Source: Candidatus Aenigmatarchaeota archaeon
Lineage (GTDB): Archaea; Aenigmatarchaeota; Aenigmatarchaeia; Aenigmatarchaeales; JACQIB01
Reading direction: 5' to 3'
DNA length: 64,000 nucleotides
Assembly: GCA_043799675.1 (NCBI GenBank)
Contig: JAZDNN010000024.1
Span: 32,412 to 96,411 of the forward strand
Shown: piece after piece, positions 25,217-64,000 of the stretch
How positions within the stretch are numbered: position 1 is the stretch's first letter
How the letters are laid out: each line of letters opens with the position of its first letter
Translations under genes and position numbers: made by a program
The notes under the pieces: model-generated
Databases searched by the model: none
What the model was told of the DNA's origin: nothing
The model's input: the letters and a program-made list of their open reading frames with translations, nothing else

Positions 25217-26801
25217 ATGGAGCAGGAACCTGAAAAGCAGACAGGCAGTCTGCCGAAGGAAATCAAGAAAATCAGCGAGGTCGTCTGGGAACTGCCCACC
25301 AGCTACAAGAAAGGCATGCGCGTGCCGGCAAGAATATATGCGACCAAGAAGCTGCTCGATGCGATGGACGCGGGAGTGTTCGAGCAGGTCACCAACGTCG
25401 CGACCCTGCCGGGAATCGTCAAGCATGCGTTCTGTATGCCGGATGGGCACTGGGGTATGGGTCAAGTCGCGGCTTGATTCACTCAAATATGGGTTCCCAA
25501 TCGGCGGCGTGGCTGCATTCGACCCGAAGGTCGGCGTGATCAGCCCGGGCGGCATCGGGTTCGACATCAACTGCGGCATGAGGTTCGTCACTACCAACCT
25601 TACTGTCAAGGACGTCAAACCCAAGCTGAAAGAACTGGTGGATATCCTGTTCAGGACGGTTCCCGCGGGCGTGGGCGGGGAAGGGTTTGTAAAATTAAGC
25701 CGCAGCCAATTCGACGAAATAATGGTCCAAGGGGCCAATTGGGTCATCGAGCACGGCTACGGTTGGAAAGAGGACACGGAAAGAATAGAGGAGTACGGCT
25801 GCATCAAAGGTGCTGATCCGTCAAAGGTCAGCGACAAGGCAAGGACCAGAGGCATCACGCAGATGGGGACGCTCGGCTCAGGGAACCATTACCTGGAAAT
25901 CCAGACTGCCGAGAAAATTTTCCTTCCCGAAGTCGCAGAGGCATTCGGCGTGAACGAACAGGGGCAGATAGGGGTGATGGTGCACTGCGGCTCGAGGGGG
26001 TTCGGCCACCAAATCGGAACGGATTATCTCAGGATATTCGACATGGCAATGAAGAAGTACAACATCACGGTGCCTGACAGGGAGCTTGCCTGTGCGCCTT
26101 TTGCGAGCCAGGAAGGACAGGATTATTATCACGCGATGGCCTGCGCGGCAAACATGGCTTTTGCCAACAGGCAGGTGATTTTGCACAGGATACGCGAGGC
26201 TTTTGCAAAGGTGTTCAGGAAATCCCCCGAAGACATGGAAATGCACCTGGTGTACGATGTCGCGCACAACGTGGCCAAGGTGGAGAAACACCTGGTCGAC
26301 GGTCATGAAAAGGAACTGGTGATGCACCGGAAGGGGAGCACGCGCTGCTTCGGTCCGGGTAGGCCGGAGATTCCTGAAGCTTACCGCAAGGTCGGCCAGC
26401 CGGTGATTGTGGGCGGCAGCATGGAAACGGGCAGCTTTTTGTGCGTGGGCACGGACAAGGCTCTGACAGAAACATGGGGAAGCACCATGCACGGCGCGGG
26501 CAGAACCATGAGCAGGACTTCAGCGAGGAACCAGGGCTCGGGCTTGGCGTTGCAGAAGAAGATGGCCAAGGAAGGGATACTGGTGGAAGCCACGAGCATG
26601 AGCGGGCTTGCAGAGGAAGCGGGCTTTGCCTACAAGGACCTGAACGAAGTGGTCGAGACCATGGAAATCGCGGGCGTGAGCAGGAAGGTCGTTCTGCTGA
26701 GGCCTTTGGGTAATATTAAAGGCACCGCCCGGGCCTCATACAGCCTTTTAGCTTTCCCCATACTTGTCATGGTCTTGGCCTTGATTTCGTCCCTTATCTG
26801 A
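25217..26801 (+). CDS. rtcB: RtcB RNA-splicing ligase, join(25217..25456,25488..26801)
   Basis: MPDGHWG|YGFPIGG, GFDINCG, GNHYLE, HCGSRG, HN, HRKG, HGAGR, EEAG.AYK, NIKG; a single frame is restored by removing 31 nt. Confidence 0.95.
25457..25487 (+). other. 31-nt BHB intron in rtcB mRNA
   Basis: Central helix UGGG(25451-54)/CUCA(25482-85), bulges GU^A and AA^U, 10-bp intron stem closing a CGCG loop; cuts give TGG GGT TAT GGG (WGYG). Confidence 0.88.
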
Positions 26802-27865
26802 ACGATAAGCGGTTCGACCTGTTTCCACCTCGTGATGTTCTTGCCGATTATTTCGAGAATCAATTCCTTTTTGGCCGTTTTCTCGGGATGCCTCAACGGC
26901 AGCAATTCGAGCATCCGACGGACATCGGCCTTCCTGAAGATTTCTAAGGCGAAATAATCCTTGCTGTATCTTATACTGACCCCATGAGTGTCTCTGCCGT
27001 CCCCGCGCCTGAAAATCCTGTATAGAATTGGATTAAAGCCCTGTTCCCTTAGTTGCCGTTTTATCCTACCAAGCAAGGTTTTATTTTCGGTGCCTATCCG
27101 CATACAACACTGCAAATTTTCCCTGATTTTCTTGACCAGAAGCGACCCTTCCGCATCGAAGTAGCCGGCCAGGAACGACAGGAAAACATTCCGTTCGGAT
27201 TCGACCAACTCTGAAATCAATCGTTTCCTGTTTTCCAGCAAGAGGAAGTCGAAGCTGTTGTCGAGGTCTGCGGATGTCGTCCACATGTAATTTCCAAAAG
27301 TTCTGTTCTTCGCAGGATATGTCCTTACCTTCGCATATCCTTTGAACAGGCTCTCGAAGACATCCAGGAATCCTTCATGAGTCGTGTTGGTTATGGCCCG
27401 AATGGTATGCTTCGATCTTCTGAAGGCTGTCACATCACCCTCCACGAAACCAACCATGTAAGCCTTTTCTTCATCCTTTCCATCAAAACTTTGCCGTTCA
27501 TGTTTCCTGTTTGTCAGCAGGATAGCCTCATCGTTTCCACGCACCCGAAAGCCGTTTTCTTCCAGCACCTTATGCAACGTGCCTTTGGAAGAACCAAATT
27601 TCTTGGCCAGCTTTTTCAACGATATTTTCTCCGTGTCATAAAGTCTCAGAATTTCCGTCACAGGCAGGTGTTTCCTGTGAGACAACGAATGTGCCTGACT
27701 GAGATTCCTTATCGGTATGTCAAGTTTGATGAACCGTTTTCTTACGGCCGACCACGATATATCGTCTCCGAGCTTAACACTCAATATCGCCGCCACTTCT
27801 TTGAACGTCTTACCGGACGAATAGAGACTCTCGGCTTCCTTCAGGAGTTCGCTGTTCAGCTTCAT
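26630..27865 (-). CDS. Free-standing LAGLIDADG homing-endonuclease-like protein with N-terminal HTH repeats
   Basis: AYMVGFVEGD and FLAGYFDAEGS motifs; LPLRHPEK. Confidence 0.88.
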   Translation of the reverse strand: MKLNSELLKEAESLYSSGKTFKEVAAILSVKLGDDISWSAVRKRFIKLDIPIRNLSQAHSLSHRKHLPVTEILRLYDTEKISLKKLAKKFGSSKGTLHKVLEENGFRVRGNDEAILLTNRKHERQSFDGKDEEKAYMVGFVEGDVTAFRRSKHTIRAITNTTHEGFLDVFESLFKGYAKVRTYPAKNRTFGNYMWTTSADLDNSFDFLLLENRKRLISELVESERNVFLSFLAGYFDAEGSLLVKKIRENLQCCMRIGTENKTLLGRIKRQLREQGFNPILYRIFRRGDGRDTHGVSIRYSKDYFALEIFRKADVRRMLELLPLRHPEKTAKKELILEIIGKNITRWKQVEPLIVQIRDEIKAKTMTSMGKAKRLYEARAVPLILPKGLSRTTFLLTPAISMVSTTSFRSL

Positions 27866-27920: not shown

Positions 27921-28997
27921 CTAATCATGCAGAATACATCCAAAAATATTATTATACCTTCCAGCGAGCGCATTTCTCAACCTGAACGTGTCGCCCTGCG
28001 CCGCATAGGCCATCCAGCCCTCAAGGCTTTTCGCAGCCTGTTCTGCCGAAATCTCACCGGATTCGTACTGCAGTCTGAGTGCCGTCATCCTTTTTTCGAG
28101 CTTCAGCAGGTTCCTCCTTTTTGGAATCCTGTAGTGGTAGAACACCCTGAAGCCGAGCAACGATATCCCCTTATGCAAAGGGTAGACCTGCGATTTTTCC
28201 TCATGCAACTCTAGCTTTAACCGTTGTTTGAGGAACCCGTTTATCCCGCTCCTGAACTGCATCAGCGCGGCCTCAGACCTGTCCAGAATCACGAAGTCAT
28301 CTACATACCGGAGATAGAACCTTGCCTTAAGCACGTGCTTCACGAAATGGTCCAGCTCATTCAGGTAGACGTTCGCGAAGAACTGGCTCGTCTGATTGCC
28401 TATCGGCATCCCCTTCGGCAGGGCAGGGTCGTTGTTCGACAGGATTTTCCGTACCAGCCAGAGCACGCTTTCGTCCCTTATTTTTCTCCGTATGATGCCA
28501 ATCAGGACATCGTGGTCGACGCTCGGGAAATAGTGCCTTATGTCGGCCTTCAGTGCATAGCCGACCACCATGTTGTTGTCCTTCGCGCCGTGCACCAAAC
28601 GGCCGTTCCCGGAAACCTTTCGCTTGAAGCAATCAAACCTGTCCAATGCTGCCAGGCCGCCCTTTCCCTTCCTGTTGGCGTAGCTGTCGTGGATGAACGT
28701 TTTGTCGAAAATCGGTTCGAGCACGTTGCATAACGCATGATGGACAACACGGTCCCTGAAATGCGAGGCATGAATTACCCGTGTCTTGGGGTCGCGGATG
28801 ATGAACCGTTTCAACGGGCGCGGCGAATACGTACGATTTTCAAGCTCAGTTTTCAAATCTGCCAATTCGCCATCAAGATTAGCTTCGAATCTTTTGACAT
28901 ACCATTTCTTCGACTTGCCCTTCCTCGCCTTTCTGAATGCCAGCAAAAGGTTCTCTGGCGAGCAGACCTTTCCGTAAAGGTTGTCAAATGTTTTCAA
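27921..28997 (-). CDS. DGR reverse transcriptase
   Basis: KTRVIHASHFRDRVVHHA, DIRHYFPS, GMPIGNQTSQFFAN (DGR-type SQ motif), RYVDD, LGF. Confidence 0.96.
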   Translation of the reverse strand: MKTFDNLYGKVCSPENLLLAFRKARKGKSKKWYVKRFEANLDGELADLKTELENRTYSPRPLKRFIIRDPKTRVIHASHFRDRVVHHALCNVLEPIFDKTFIHDSYANRKGKGGLAALDRFDCFKRKVSGNGRLVHGAKDNNMVVGYALKADIRHYFPSVDHDVLIGIIRRKIRDESVLWLVRKILSNNDPALPKGMPIGNQTSQFFANVYLNELDHFVKHVLKARFYLRYVDDFVILDRSEAALMQFRSGINGFLKQRLKLELHEEKSQVYPLHKGISLLGFRVFYHYRIPKRRNLLKLEKRMTALRLQYESGEISAEQAAKSLEGWMAYAAQGDTFRLRNALAGRYNNIFGCILHD

Positions 28998-29046
28998 AAA
29001 TATCCCCTATCGGCGGCCCGTGCTATTGGCGCAGACCCCGTTGTCA

Positions 29047-29079
29047 TTCAGGCTTCCCGCCAAAAGGCAATGAGGAAGT
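29047..29079 (-). other. TR intron 3 (33 nt, BHB)
   Basis: CAGG-AA^A-CUUCC...GGAAG-CCUG-AA^U. Confidence 0.85.
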
Positions 29080-29104
29080 TTCCTGTTCGAGGGCCTGTTC
29101 GCAT

Positions 29105-29135
29105 TTATGCCGGCGGAACGTTTCCTTCCAACCGT
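29105..29135 (-). other. TR intron 2 (31 nt, BHB)
   Basis: AUGC-GA^A-CGGU...GCCG-GCAU-AA^A. Confidence 0.85.
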
Positions 29136-29151
29136 TCGCATTGAAGCACCC

Positions 29152-29168
29152 TTGACGGCCCGAAGGCT
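29152..29168 (-). other. TR intron 1 (17 nt, BHB)
   Basis: GACG-AG^A-GCC(UUCG)GGC-CGUC-AA^G. Confidence 0.85.
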
Positions 29169-29442
29169 CTCGTCCGTGTTCCAATCCGACCTGACGGAAG
29201 GGTTTCGGTAGCCTCTCCACCGACATGACACCGCGGCTTCAATCTTCGGGAACCTACCAACTGAAACCGCTGAATTTAATGGCACAAGCATTCGGACGGC
29301 ATGAAATGCCATCGCACCATCTTGCGCTCTATGGAAAGGCGTATAGCGCGGGCCTTTGCCGGGAGAATGAAATACCCGCCCCCCGATTGGGAAGGAAAGA
29401 ACTCTGTCATGCAAAAATTGAGGGACGAAACGATTTATGCGC

Positions 29443-30189
29443 CTATTTTGAGGTCTTAACCGCTTTTTTTGCGGCGCAGACCCCGAGGTCATGCCTGAGC
29501 GAGGGCCCGCCCGCATCCGCATCGAAGCACCCCCCGTCGGAGTGCCAAGTCGACCTGACGGAAGCCACTTCAACCGGGATTAAGGCTTCTGTTTCGATTT
29601 CTACTATATCCAGTTTGTTGTCTTTCATCCTGTAAGAAGCCGCTTTCTGTTTGGCCAGCTTTTGGATGACCTCAAGATTATGATTCCAGTAATCGTCCAT
29701 CGTTGCCTTGTATTCCTTGTCGGAATTCATCAGTTCAGCCGACTCCTGTGCCTTGAAGTGTCTTACTCCAAAGTCCAGCTTGAACTCCTCGGGTATTCTC
29801 TGATAGACCAGTTCCTGGATTATCCTGTCCGCATTGGCGATGAACCCTTTGCGTTTATAGTCCCTGAACTTTCCTGCGTCCCCTTTGGCCATCAGGAGCG
29901 CATAGCCTTTCTTTTCAAGGTCCTTTTCCAGCCTCTTTCCGTCAATTATGGCCAATATTTCATCGACCTCTCCCAACCTTTCTTTTACAGAAAAATCATC
30001 ATCAAATATTACAGAGCCATTGTAAGCGGCCAGCTTCGAATCATACGCGCCTGCTGCACGCAGATAATCGAGAACACAGCCTTCAACAGTTACAGGCACG
30101 GCTTTTCCCGTGAACCTGAATTCCCCGTCGATAATCCTCACTTCAGGCTCGGGCATCACGACCGTTGTTATTTTGCTCATGATAATCAT
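29443..30189 (-). CDS. DGR target protein 1 (C-terminal VR)
   Basis: C-terminus ASVRSTWHSDGGCFDADAGGPSLRHDLGVCA is encoded by VR1. Confidence 0.9.
   Translation of the reverse strand: MIIMSKITTVVMPEPEVRIIDGEFRFTGKAVPVTVEGCVLDYLRAAGAYDSKLAAYNGSVIFDDDFSVKERLGEVDEILAIIDGKRLEKDLEKKGYALLMAKGDAGKFRDYKRKGFIANADRIIQELVYQRIPEEFKLDFGVRHFKAQESAELMNSDKEYKATMDDYWNHNLEVIQKLAKQKAASYRMKDNKLDIVEIETEALIPVEVASVRSTWHSDGGCFDADAGGPSLRHDLGVCAAKKAVKTSK
29473..29564 (-). repeat. DGR variable repeat VR1
   Basis: 92 nt; 16 mismatches to the spliced TR, 14 at TR adenines (manual count). Confidence 0.9.
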
Positions 30190-30192
30190 TCT

Positions 30193-30918
30193 TCAGAAGT
30201 GCTTCTTCACGACTTCGAGGTCTTTCATCAAAGCGTCATATTTCTTTGACTTTTCCAGAAGCTCCCGGTATTCGCTCTCCGCGACCTCGCACATCTTCGG
30301 AAGCTCGGCCTTCTCGTCCGTTTTAAGGAGGGCGCAGACCCCGTCGTCAGCCCAGTGCGAGGGCCTGCCCGCAGTCGCATTGAAGCACCCCTCGCCCGTG
30401 GTCCAAGCCGACCTGACGGAAGCTTCACCGTTTTCAAACGAGATGCTTCCCCTCCAGACCTTCTTTTTCGGTTTCTTGAACAGCCCGGCATTCACGAGTG
30501 TATCAAAGACGTCCGATTTGCTTATCCCGGCCCTTGTTCTTTTGCCGTCATATTTGAGTTCACCGTTCACTTCCTTCACGACGGGGTCGGCTATTATCTC
30601 GCCCTTCTCAAGGGCGACTTCCCTGTTGTGCAACCAATAATCAATATTCATTTTCTTGAACGACTTGTCCTCGTGCACCAAATCGTAAGAAACCTGCAAC
30701 GGCAGGAGCGTGTAGCGCTCGCCGACCTTCTTTGATACTTCCTGACCGAGAAGCGTCATCTGCCTGTGGTCGAGGTTCGCCACGAGGCCATTGCCTTTGT
30801 AGTCGTTGTGCCCTTCGGCAGGACTTCCCTTCCATTTCGGGAAATACACCGTTTCCTTGCCCGTGGGCGGCACTATCTTTCCCGCTATCTCATGGACGAT
30901 TTCGGCCTGTGTTACCAT
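30193..30918 (-). CDS. DGR target protein 2
   Basis: Contains VR2 (ASVRSAWTTGEGCFNATAGRPSHWADDGVCA) followed by a ~40-aa helical tail. Confidence 0.9.
   Translation of the reverse strand: MVTQAEIVHEIAGKIVPPTGKETVYFPKWKGSPAEGHNDYKGNGLVANLDHRQMTLLGQEVSKKVGERYTLLPLQVSYDLVHEDKSFKKMNIDYWLHNREVALEKGEIIADPVVKEVNGELKYDGKRTRAGISKSDVFDTLVNAGLFKKPKKKVWRGSISFENGEASVRSAWTTGEGCFNATAGRPSHWADDGVCALLKTDEKAELPKMCEVAESEYRELLEKSKKYDALMKDLEVVKKHF
30331..30422 (-). repeat. DGR variable repeat VR2
   Basis: 92 nt; 11 mismatches to the spliced TR, all at TR adenines (manual count). Confidence 0.93.
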
Positions 30919-30978: not shown

Positions 30979-31701
30979 TCAATCGCCGCATTCGTCCAAA
31001 GCCGCTTTCCTAAAATCCAACGATTTAGGAGGGTCCTTCAGAAACTGTTGATATTCGCTCTCCGCAATCTTGCGCACCTTCGGCTTCTCAACGGCCTTGC
31101 CCGTTTTCACGAAGGCGACAACCCCGCGGTCAGGCCCGGAGGAGGGCCAAGACGCACCCACAGCGAAGCACCCAAAACGGTTTCCCGACTTGACGGAAGA
31201 AATGCCGTCATTCTCGTAAATGATGCCCCAATCACAGACGTTGTGATTGAGCTGCTTGAACAGTTTTGCGCTGGCAAGCGTCTTTATCACGGACTCTGCG
31301 TCAATGTTCGCCTTTACGCTCCTGCAACCATCATTGAGCCTGAGCTCGCCGTCGACTTCGCTGACAATCGGGACGGAAATAACATCCCCGTTTCTCCGTA
31401 TGACTTCCCTGTTGATTATCTTATAATCGGCCATCATTTTCTTGAAACTTCTGTCATTATGCACCAAATCATAACTCGTCTGAAACGGAAGTTCGGCATA
31501 ACGCTCGCCCACTTTCTCGGATATCATCTGACCCAAGAACACGGACTGCCACTTATCGAGAGTCGCAACAAAACCCTTACCGTAACGATCGTTGCGTCCT
31601 TCTATCGGACTTCCCTTCCACTTCGGAAAATACGCCGTTTCCTTGCCGGTAGGCATCCTAATCTTGTCCAAAATTTCATAGACGATTTCAGCTTCACCCA
31701 T
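30979..31701 (-). CDS. Paralog of DGR target 2 with degenerate VR
   Basis: Shared PTGKET.YFPKWKGSP.EG and GERY..LP.Q.SYDLVH.D.SFKKM; VR-like segment at 31114-31199. Confidence 0.85.
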   Translation of the reverse strand: MGEAEIVYEILDKIRMPTGKETAYFPKWKGSPIEGRNDRYGKGFVATLDKWQSVFLGQMISEKVGERYAELPFQTSYDLVHNDRSFKKMMADYKIINREVIRRNGDVISVPIVSEVDGELRLNDGCRSVKANIDAESVIKTLASAKLFKQLNHNVCDWGIIYENDGISSVKSGNRFGCFAVGASWPSSGPDRGVVAFVKTGKAVEKPKVRKIAESEYQQFLKDPPKSLDFRKAALDECGD

Positions 31702-32102: not shown

Positions 32103-32429
32103 ATGAAAGTCATCGAAATACAACCGACGACCATGGCGGAGGCCAAGGAGATAGTGCTCGCGAAGGAGAAGGACAAGGAGCTGGGCTACGAGCAGAAGCT
32201 CGCGGCGGAGCACCTGAAGAAGTTCACCAAGCTGAAGCGCGAGGATGCCAAGAAGTTCATGAACGAGCTGACTTCCGTGCTGAAGGCCTCGCCCGAGACG
32301 CTGGTGACCATAGCGAACGTCCTCCCGCAAACCACCGATGAGGTACGGCTGATTTTTGCCAGAGAGAAGTTCAGCGTGAAGGAAGACGAGATTTCCAAGA
32401 TACTGGAGATAGTCAAGAAGTTTGTTTGA
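32103..32429 (+). CDS. rpo4: RNA polymerase subunit Rpo4 (F)
   Basis: LGYEQK.A.EHL.KF.K, IAN.LP...EVR.IF; upstream of DUF655. Confidence 0.92.
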   Translation: MKVIEIQPTTMAEAKEIVLAKEKDKELGYEQKLAAEHLKKFTKLKREDAKKFMNELTSVLKASPETLVTIANVLPQTTDEVRLIFAREKFSVKEDEISKILEIVKKFV

Positions 32430-61859: not shown

Positions 61860-62364
61860 GACAATCCAACACAATGCGAGGATTTAAAACAGAGCTTCCG
61901 CTCGCTTGCGGAATGGGAAAGAAAAATATTGAGATCAGCAGAGGAGAGCAAAACTTCAGCGCAGCCATGCACGCTTGCACGGCATGCGATTGAGGGGGTC
62001 CGGCTACCAAAATTGGCACAGCCAGCACTCACGCTAACAAGGCGAGCTTGCGCTCGCCAAGCTAGATGAGAGGCTGACCGCCAAAACCATTTGGCAGTTA
62101 GTGGACGCGGACTGAACACGTCGCCGAAGCTTCGTGCGTACATCCCGTCCCTATCAAGGAAGTCGTCTAGCTTCCAGCCAATGCCTATTTTTCCCGGCCG
62201 TTTCGCGCTTAGATGCCTTCAGCGCTTAAGGGCGATCGCGTGGCTGCCCGGCGTTGCCTTTCGACAACCGGTAAACCAGAGGCGACCGAGCGGCGTTCCT
62301 TTCGTACTTGCCGCTCGTTCGGGTCAGGCAATAGCACCCTCGGTAGATATAAACCGTACTGTCT

Positions 62365-63006
62365 ATGTCGTCCAACGTAGATCGTTTATGATACTTTCGT
62401 ATCATTGTATTGGACTTTTTCTCGGTGGGTCGAAAAAGAGTGTAGATCAATATAGACAGGAGTCTCTTTCATCTCTACATCTTTTCAAAAATTTTGCGTA
62501 TCCCGGAATCGTTGGCTCACTAGCTACTCCATTTCGCACATTCATAGCATTGGCTTGCGCCAGGCCATGTTGGGAGTGCATTGGGGCGGTGCGTTCATTG
62601 CCGCCAGGATACTTTACCGTGACTGGTATACCGTTTTCATAGCAGCGGTTATCAAACTCTGGAGTTCGAACATCACCGCACGGCCGCTCAAACTATCGAC
62701 ATTGATATTTCATAGCAGCCCGAGCTAACGCTCATGCTCAACGGTTCTTCTCGTCACGGAGCGGCAGCTCGCTTTGGTAAGCAAAGCTGCCAATTCGCAA
62801 GTCGATTGTGACTTCGGTCAAATCATCGCAACAGGCAAAGAAGACCTTCCGGTCTTCAGAGCTTTTGCTCGCTTGACTTCAGATTCTCTCATCCTTGCAA
62901 GACCCACCTATTTTCCGCGCGATAACACGCGCAAGGCTAGATGCACTAGCATTTGGTTGCCCTGCGCTGTCATCACAACAGATCCAATACTGATCCACAG
63001 TCAGAT
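62365..63006 (-). other. 23S BHB intron (~E. coli 2597), 642 nt, no long ORF
   Basis: GUCG-UG^A-UCUGAC ... GUUGGA-CGAC-AU^A; splicing restores GUCGUGAGACAG. Confidence 0.88.
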
Positions 63007-63027
63007 CACGACGTACTGAACCCAGCT

Positions 63028-63120
63028 CTGACGAGAAGCCAAGAGTTGGATATAGATAATTCTGTCTACCAATCTCAAAATTGGAAGAATTACCCAAACC
63101 CGCATTCTCCTGCACTCCCT
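63028..63120 (-). other. 23S BHB intron (~E. coli 2576), about 93 nt
   Basis: GACG-UU^A-GGGAGU ... GCUUCU-CGUC-AG^A; boundary uncertain by 1 nt. Confidence 0.8.
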
Positions 63121-63246
63121 AACGTCCCCCTTTAATCAGTGAACACCTGCACCCTTGGCTGCTACTGCACAGCCAGGAGGGGGGAGCCGACAGCGAGGTA
63201 GCAACGCGCGGGGTCGATAGGAGCTCTCGCCCGCCACGACTCTGTT

Positions 63247-63888
63247 ATGAGGTGGCTAGCATAGAGAAGCGGTCTTCAACTTTTCTAAAAGCAATATTTG
63301 TTTTTCAGGGTGATGAAACCCGAACTTCTGCCGAAACTTTTTCAGATTCTGTATTCCATAGATGTGGAGAACCCATATCCCGCGCTTGTCTTGCAACAAG
63401 TGAACGGGTTTTATTCCGGCACGTTCCAAAACAGTTTTGGTGACATGAAGCAGTTCATGCTTCTTGTTGTATGCACGCAAGCTATAGCGTCGCTTTGAAA
63501 CGCTTCCTTCGGCGTCGAACAGACCCTGAACGAATCCTTTTTGAAATGAAGCCGGCATTGACAGAACTCTGCCAAAATCCTTTCTCATCTCAATGAGTTC
63601 GTTGTAAAGGTCCTTCGAATAAACCACAAGCCTGTAGTATTTTCTGCTCTTCCTTTGTCTGATACTGGACTTGAGGTGAAAACCCTGTTGAAGGGCTTTC
63701 CTTACTTCAAGCAGCCAGCGCCGATCCAACTGTTCTATTTCCAGGATGTATTCAAACTTCTTTTCCTTGAAGTAGACGGTCCCGTCCTCGGCCGCGCCGA
63801 AGACGAATCCGCGCTCGCGCTGCATGCAATAACATTGCCGAAGGTACAAATAAAGTTGAAGACCCAATTTTGTCTCTACGCTAGCCAT
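63247..63888 (-). mobile_element. 23S BHB intron (~E. coli 2449), 642 nt, encoding a homing endonuclease
   Basis: GGGG-AU^A-UGGCUAGCGUAGAGA ... UCUCUAUGCUAGCCA-CCUC-AU^A; splicing restores GGGGAUAACAG. Confidence 0.92.
63256..63888 (-). CDS. Intron-encoded LAGLIDADG homing endonuclease
   Basis: GFVFGAAEDG and GFVQGLFDAEGS; FGFHHPEK. Confidence 0.9.
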   Translation of the reverse strand: MASVETKLGLQLYLYLRQCYCMQRERGFVFGAAEDGTVYFKEKKFEYILEIEQLDRRWLLEVRKALQQGFHLKSSIRQRKSRKYYRLVVYSKDLYNELIEMRKDFGRVLSMPASFQKGFVQGLFDAEGSVSKRRYSLRAYNKKHELLHVTKTVLERAGIKPVHLLQDKRGIWVLHIYGIQNLKKFRQKFGFHHPEKQILLLEKLKTASLC

Positions 63889-64000
63889 ATCCCCGGGGTA
63901 GCTTTTCTGAAGTCACCGACGGCCATCAGTGCCCAGCTCGGTGTATCGCTATGCCCGACTTTCGTCTCTCAATCCTTTGCTTTGCGGGATCGAGTCAGGC

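Follow-up and report, generated by a model that had tools for sequence, protein, structure and literature searches.

Bulge-helix-bulge introns predicted in the template repeat of a diversity-generating retroelement from a DPANN archaeon

The interrupted template repeat

The window examined here is a stretch of 64,000 nucleotides of contig JAZDNN010000024.1 from a Candidatus Aenigmatarchaeota archaeon, and it carries a diversity-generating retroelement (DGR). The order on the minus strand is three paralogous target genes, a structured RNA domain of the Rfam family RT-16, the template repeat (TR) and then the reverse transcriptase (RT). Two of the target genes hold variable repeats (VR1 and VR2). 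In the DNA, three short inserts break up the TR, which are absent from both VRs and which have the bulge-helix-bulge (BHB) geometry of archaeal introns. Judging from the comparison of sequences, the TR RNA is very probably spliced by the tRNA-splicing enzymes of the host, the endonuclease EndA and the ligase RtcB, before it is reverse transcribed. The features on which this reading draws are as follows.

29200..29028, minus strand: DGR template repeat (TR), 173 nt in the DNA and 92 nt once the three inserts are removed
29200..29169, 29151..29136, 29104..29080 and 29046..29028, minus strand: the four TR exons
29152..29168, minus strand: predicted TR intron 1, 17 nt; helix GACG/CGTC, 5' bulge AGA, 3' bulge AAG, 3-bp hairpin with a 4-nt loop
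29105..29135, minus strand: predicted TR intron 2, 31 nt; helix ATGC/GCAT, 5' bulge GAA, 3' bulge AAA, two-part hairpin
29047..29079, minus strand: predicted TR intron 3, 33 nt; helix CAGG/CCTG, 5' bulge AAA, 3' bulge AAT, 6-bp hairpin
29473..29564, minus strand: VR1, in target gene 1, with none of the TR inserts
29443..30189, minus strand: target gene 1, 248 aa, which holds VR1
30331..30422, minus strand: VR2, in target gene 2, with none of the TR inserts
30193..30918, minus strand: target gene 2, 241 aa, which holds VR2
29203..29379, minus strand: structured RNA domain, Rfam RT-16 (RF03019), 57.2 bits (gathering score 50)
27921..28997, minus strand: DGR-type RT, 358 aa, TTG start, Pfam RVT_1 E 3e-16

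The TR is not colinear with the VRs because the three inserts make it 81 nt longer in the DNA. A preliminary description of the locus had divided the TR into four blocks separated by inserts of 17, 31 and 33 nt, and this division was reproduced exactly by alignment and by an independent repeat finding in which four TR blocks match both VR1 and VR2. The spliced TR of 92 nt, which contains 22 adenines, aligns without gaps to both VRs. VR2 differs from it at 11 positions, all of them TR adenines, and VR1 differs at 16 positions, 14 of which are TR adenines; these are the same counts as were first reported. The cut expected from the BHB motif of intron 1 also predicts a fixed G at the junction, and this G was found in VR1 as well as in VR2.

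Geometry and register of the inserts

The 4-bp central helix, the two 3-nt bulges and the hairpin that the preliminary description had assigned to each insert were observed in all three. In such motifs, EndA cuts each 3-nt bulge between its second and third nucleotides. The junction of intron 1 is uniquely resolved by VR2 and coincides with this cut. A 2-bp outer helix (CA/TG) is possible at intron 2, and the minimum-energy fold of the TR includes all three helix-bulge-hairpin units. The motifs are of the relaxed BHB type. A loose geometric scan returned numerous other BHB-like combinations in any TR region and is unspecific by itself, so that only geometry which coincides with junctions defined by the VRs is informative.

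A stretch of 18 nt inside intron 3 was noticed to have an exact match at 32269-32286 of the contig, 126-143 nt before the window (blastn-short E 0.002). This match was set aside as another intron copy, being unrecognisable as an intron and located between genes, in a hairpin that follows a stop codon.

RT homologs were found in nine of 42 genomes of the same order. Five related genomes were compared closely (loci and genomes are given here by our own handles, L and G), and four of them carry inserts at the same three TR sites while the fifth (L022) carries only the 3'-most one. The hairpins of these inserts vary in sequence and length, and the central helices show compensatory changes. For example, the helix of intron 1 changes from GACG/CGTC to AACG/CGTT and that of intron 2 from ATGC/GCAT to ACGC/GCGT, with ATGT/GCAT also observed. 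In one relative, the helix of intron 3 changes from CAGG/CCTG to CGAG/CTCG, which amounts to two compensatory changes. In all five genomes the BHB-spliced TR and its own VR align without gaps, and every mismatch falls at an adenine. The same three inserts were found in at least ten loci, and in every locus compared the interrupted TR lies between RT-16 and the RT, its canonical place.

Pairing in the three introns was examined across seven three-intron TRs. A total of 97.8% of 135 cells pair and ten of the twenty pairs have changed on both sides. None of 500 shuffles performed as well, and structures slid out of place pair in 23.6-52.6% of the cells.

The screen of species genomes, in which the TR-VR alignment allowed long gaps, covered 32 loci (30 from DPANN archaea and two from Verrucomicrobia), or 33 with the window. 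A VR was found in 27 of the 33, of which 20 have inserts that passed the filter and six have no inserts. The remaining locus (L034) has a 17-nt insert which was seen by eye and had been removed by the flank filter, which brings the loci with inserts to 21 of 27. Counted by locus and VR there are 46 insert instances, which collapse to 42 entries from 20 loci and represent 41 distinct inserts, as one intron of L039 was entered twice. When the register of a helix followed by two nucleotides is placed before both junctions, all four pairs form in 38 of the 42 entries and at least three of four form in all 42. Random pseudo-inserts of equal length form four pairs in 10.8% and at least three pairs in 50% of 8400 trials. 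The comparison of the relatives thus excludes a chance origin of the predicted BHB register. Recurrent introns with covariation had been anticipated from a gapped TR-VR screen of DPANN DGR loci with a BHB model, and they were found.

Since A-rich flanks blur many of the junctions, the test of the register was limited to the 17 instances for which one junction alone is most parsimonious. The complete helix was observed at offset 6, which corresponds to the helix plus two nucleotides, in 16 of these, and the seventeenth has three of four pairs there. At offsets 3-5 and 7-10 it was observed in none of the 17 and at offset 2 in two. Excision is therefore asymmetric, where the 5' helix strand and two bulge nucleotides are kept and the 3' strand and two nucleotides are lost. 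This is what EndA cleavage predicts, and a polymerase jump across the stem is not expected to produce it.

The pattern was also observed in metagenomes and was missing from viral contigs. Of 80 metagenomic loci, 64 were analysable and 25 have a VR; inserts occur in six of the 25 and all eight of these inserts fit with four of four pairs. One of the insert-bearing loci (L067) duplicates L025. The three nearest metagenomic relatives, with RT identities of 82-85% (85% is the highest in the collection), share the three introns of the window and vary in their hairpins. No real TR insert was found in the 43 viral-contig loci with a VR, among 62 such loci in total. The apparent inserts in two of them (L185 and L206) were rejected as alignment artefacts that arise from spurious 5' extensions of the local alignment.

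Interrupted repeats as working templates

VRs were observed to follow the TR of their own lineage. They differ from it by 0-1 non-adenine mismatches in 80 nt, whereas 4-26 such mismatches separate them from TRs of other lineages in which the three introns are also present. Rewriting therefore went on after the introns were in place, and the intron-bearing TRs are working templates. At L037 (3038-3123; genome G042, labelled Woesearchaeota) one single-intron TR serves three VRs, all of which are mismatched at adenines; in the third, all 16 mismatches fall at TR adenines.

An intact, intron-free TR elsewhere in the genome had been named beforehand as an observation that would speak against splicing. 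None was found in the genome of the window (749 kb, at 83% completeness), in that of L025 or in that of L037 (1.1 Mb), which has no adenine-bearing copy other than the interrupted TR.

Close pairs of TRs were noticed which differ by the presence or absence of a single intron (L040 and L041, L048 and L046, L032 and L053). The intron-less alleles are identical to the predicted spliced product, as compared by eye for the L040/L041 and L048/L046 pairs. This is compatible with the loss of introns through cDNA of the putative spliced RNA.

Splicing enzymes of the host

EndA is encoded in the window's genome by two genes which overlap by ATGA (contig C10, locus L001 1474-2552, minus strand) and of which one matches the N half and the other the C half of a two-unit EndA model. 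The catalytic tyrosine and histidine are both retained in the second subunit, with a lysine-rich loop between them. In the accessible text of one source, only heteromeric and three-unit EndAs are said to cut non-canonical introns (PMC5829648).

The ligase is encoded in the window itself, and its gene is interrupted as well.

25338..26801, plus strand: rtcB, RNA-splicing ligase, Pfam RtcB 524 bits, about 1.1 kb from the RT
25457..25487, plus strand: predicted canonical BHB intron in rtcB, 31 nt; helix TGGG/CTCA, bulges GTA and AAT, 9-bp hairpin

Removal of this intron by the BHB cut rule restores both the reading frame and the conserved H-W-G-Y-G-F-P-I-G-G motif, which provides an internal check of the rule within the same organism. 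The site is likewise interrupted in at least four relatives (G016, G031 and G034, together with a relaxed form in G023). The RtcB message would need the RtcB ligase itself. The proximity of rtcB to the DGR was set aside as evidence and treated as synteny, as it was observed in the window's genome and in G009 and not in G033, G016, G026 or G013. In two relatives (G029:C25 and G032:C5) rtcB is enlarged by an insert of about 1.4 kb that keeps the frame, near position 48 of the model and within open frames of 977 and 1010 aa; this insert looks like an intein.

ARAGORN detects few tRNAs in the window's genome and the Rfam tRNA model was used instead. It gave 16 matches, 15 of which span 85-161 nt. 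Most of the tRNA genes therefore carry insertions, although a few of the matches could be tRNAs with a long arm, and the tRNA genes of this genome seem to be heavily interrupted.

Proposed splicing and its alternatives

The TR RNA would be processed as follows. The RT-16 domain and the TR would be transcribed together as a single non-coding RNA, in which host EndA would cleave every 3-nt bulge just past its second nucleotide. RtcB would then join the four exons to give an unbroken template of 92 nt, and the DGR RT would copy this spliced RNA with adenine-specific errors. The resulting cDNA would replace VR1 and VR2 in the two paralogous target genes. We infer these steps of transcription, cleavage, ligation and copying from conserved and covarying introns, the exact register of the junctions, the tracking of each TR by its VRs, the three genomes in which no intron-free TR was found and the presence of genes for EndA and RtcB. 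Together these strongly support splicing before mutagenic reverse transcription, which is also what the preliminary description had proposed.

Several observations weigh against this reading. The M. jannaschii EndA catalytic lysine (K156) aligns with an alanine in both EndA subunits, and two of the VR1 mismatches to the spliced TR fall at positions other than adenine. For introns 2 and 3, the VR alignment alone permits three to four equally parsimonious junctions because the flanks are A-rich, with the BHB cut among them. The outer helices of the three motifs have 0-3 bp and are weak or absent and the 3' bulge of intron 3 is unclosed, so that the strict hBHBh' form is not satisfied. Folding of the whole TR is no more stable than that of shuffled sequences (z = -0.63), and four of the 42 insert entries pair at only three of the four central-helix positions. 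With regard to the lysine, the numerous intron-bearing tRNA genes argue that splicing works in this organism despite the replacement by alanine.

The alanine and the weak outer helices would suit a pathway that removes the inserts from the RNA without EndA and RtcB, for example by another nuclease or ligase. Both the geometry and the register of the cuts match EndA substrates, however, and genes for both enzymes are present in a genome where most of the tRNA genes need them. Inserts of 15-40 nt are also far below the size of self-splicing introns, and such a pathway is considered to be highly improbable. The same low likelihood is given to loss of the inserts during copying, where the RT itself would skip the hairpins of unspliced TR RNA by jumping across the stem bases and no RNA splicing would take place. 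Each insert does contain a stable hairpin, and length differences between TR and VR have been reported in 25 of 372 DGRs, mostly beside AAC, and ascribed to slippage in the accessible text of Wu et al. 2017 (PMC5758913). The removed segment is nevertheless asymmetric about the stem, following the EndA rule and not a stem-base jump, and the uniquely resolved junctions cluster in the EndA register with none at the neighbouring ones. Furthermore, a polymerase would not require conserved 3-nt bulges and a 4-bp helix with compensatory changes, the same geometry restores a protein motif in rtcB, and inserts of this kind are missing from the viral-contig DGRs.

It could also be proposed that the TR has decayed or been disabled, with inserts that postdate the last retrohoming and VRs that are relics. 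The two non-adenine mismatches of VR1 and the degenerate VR of the third target paralog (described below) fit this proposal. The RT reading frame is intact, however, pairing within the introns has been preserved by compensatory changes, and VRs match their own TR over those of other lineages although the same three inserts are shared by many loci. Decay of the TR is accordingly regarded as a very remote prospect. More improbable still is a true template that lies elsewhere in the genome as an intron-free TR. An assembly that is 83% complete leaves room for such a copy, but none was found in the three genomes searched and the interrupted TR occupies the canonical place wherever it was compared. 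Splicing by EndA and RtcB before reverse transcription is therefore the reading we strongly favor, although it is drawn from genome sequences.

The remainder of the cassette and neighbouring genes

The RT matches PHROG 1423 (E 1e-123). Its best match among solved structures is 8ub7_A (E 4e-43), and a group II intron RT is matched at E 4e-23. Its length of 328 aa suggests that 8ub7 is the DGR RT of the Bordetella phage; the structure table describes it only as 'Reverse transcriptase'. The I-G-N-x-T-S-Q motif, which is a hallmark of DGR RTs, is invariant across five homologs, and by its sequence the RT is of the DGR type. RT-16 is located directly 5' of the TR and adjoins the RT in six of nine related stretches; it presumably makes up the 5' portion of the DGR RNA. 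No Avd-like accessory family was detected by Pfam among the ten neighbouring open reading frames (ORFs) that were scanned. An accessory protein (Avd or similar) is not universal in DGRs.

VR1 and VR2 are located near the 3' ends of their target genes, where about 10 codons separate the end of VR1 from the stop codon and about 45 further codons follow VR2. The third target gene is found upstream of these two.

30979..31701, minus strand: third target paralog, 240 aa, about 50% identical to target 2
31114..31199, minus strand: degenerate VR-like segment in the third paralog, local alignment score 77

This segment is free of inserts and has gaps of 4 and 2 nt and many non-adenine differences from the TR. 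The third paralog is probably no longer rewritten. The target protein gave no sequence match in Pfam, NCBIfam, PHROG or PDB, and its AlphaFold model is poor, with a mean pLDDT of 53.9 and values below 50 across the VR region.

The host assembly has 749 kb in 45 contigs and is 83% complete. The closest RT relatives come from genome records labelled Aenigmatarchaeota, Woesearchaeota and Nanoarchaeota, and the host is a DPANN archaeon.

A protein of 411 aa with LAGLIDADG_3 and helix-turn-helix domains is encoded between the RT and rtcB (26630-27865, minus strand). Its membership in the DGR cassette was rejected because homologs occur near a DGR in only two other loci (L026, with 39% identity, and L052) and in a different orientation. 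In G009 the LAGLIDADG gene is again found beside rtcB.

In addition, a 23S rRNA gene of archaeal type is represented by its 3' portion at 62079-64000 (minus strand). Compared with the Rfam model it has inserts of about 655 and 752 nt, and these two large inserts are probably rRNA introns. An ORF of 210 aa (63256..63888, minus strand) is located within the span of the first insert, which is roughly estimated as 63200..63870.

Relation to described systems

The cassette resembles the DGR of Bordetella phage BPP-1 in its RT, TR and VR, in the adenine-specific differences and in the location of the TR just upstream of the RT. It differs from BPP-1 in that no Avd-like gene occurs among the ten neighbouring ORFs. 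The flanking RNA domain is also different, being RT-16 in the window and the RT-10 region in BPP-1 (PMC5737381, in its accessible text). The same portion of that paper (Weinberg 2017) lists the motifs RT-1 to RT-19 and does not discuss RT-16. With the DGRs of Nanoarchaeota and other DPANN archaea, the accessible text of Paul et al. 2015 (PMC4372165) indicates a shared host group and general cassette; insertions, gaps or splicing of the TR are unmentioned there.

The closest precedent is experimental. According to the accessible text of Naorem et al. 2017 (PMC5703328), a self-splicing td group I intron engineered into the Bordetella phage TR was spliced out and the spliced RNA served as the template. 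The predicted introns of the window differ from that construct as they are natural, three in number and of the archaeal BHB type, which depends on proteins and is not self-splicing. Use of the template would therefore depend on EndA and RtcB of the host.

The inserts resemble the BHB introns of archaeal pre-tRNA, pre-rRNA and rare mRNAs in their bulges, 4-bp helix, cut rule and length of 15-40 nt, and also in their gain and loss between relatives. They differ in that the substrate would be the template RNA of a retroelement and that the read-out would be cDNA written into a protein gene. In comparison with the indels described in the accessible text of Wu et al. 2017, the differences in the window are structured BHB units of 15-40 nt at conserved sites.

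TR introns are unmentioned in the accessible portions of Paul 2015, Wu 2017 and a 2022 review. We found no literature that links DGRs with a BHB motif, a splicing endonuclease or RtcB, in a search which had the survey PMC5436926 and the supplements of the surveys outside its coverage. Within these bounds, the search agrees with the preliminary description, which knew of no intron-containing DGR template. The predicted introns would join DGRs with BHB introns in a manner that was not found in print.

Biological implications

A further and more tentative possibility, which we think more doubtful than probable, is that DGR hypermutation in DPANN archaea has to pass through the tRNA-splicing machinery of the host and is possibly regulated there, with the TR introns acting as a gate or safety lock. 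If so, only spliced RNA would yield cDNA that fits the target and the interrupted TR in the DNA would be safe from being overwritten by its own cDNA. Diversification would also be tied to the capacity of EndA and RtcB. As rtcB carries the same kind of intron, the level of the ligase could act as a gate on hypermutation as well as on the production of the ligase itself. The intron-less TR alleles, being identical to the predicted spliced product, could in turn result from spliced cDNA being written back into the TR.

The inserts also affect how these elements are found. With inserts in 21 of the 27 DPANN genome loci that have a VR, standard TR/VR finders which expect colinear repeats would miss or mis-draw many archaeal DGRs. 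Furthermore, the VRs of uncultivated archaea would reveal exactly where relaxed BHB motifs are spliced in vivo, which makes for a clean and testable system. The TR introns would be a natural counterpart to the engineered-intron experiment on the passage of DGR information through RNA, and they would add the template of a retroelement to the substrates known for archaeal EndA and RtcB. Two systems that have been thought of as separate would thus be linked, where a retroelement that rewrites proteins would depend on the tRNA-splicing enzymes of its host.

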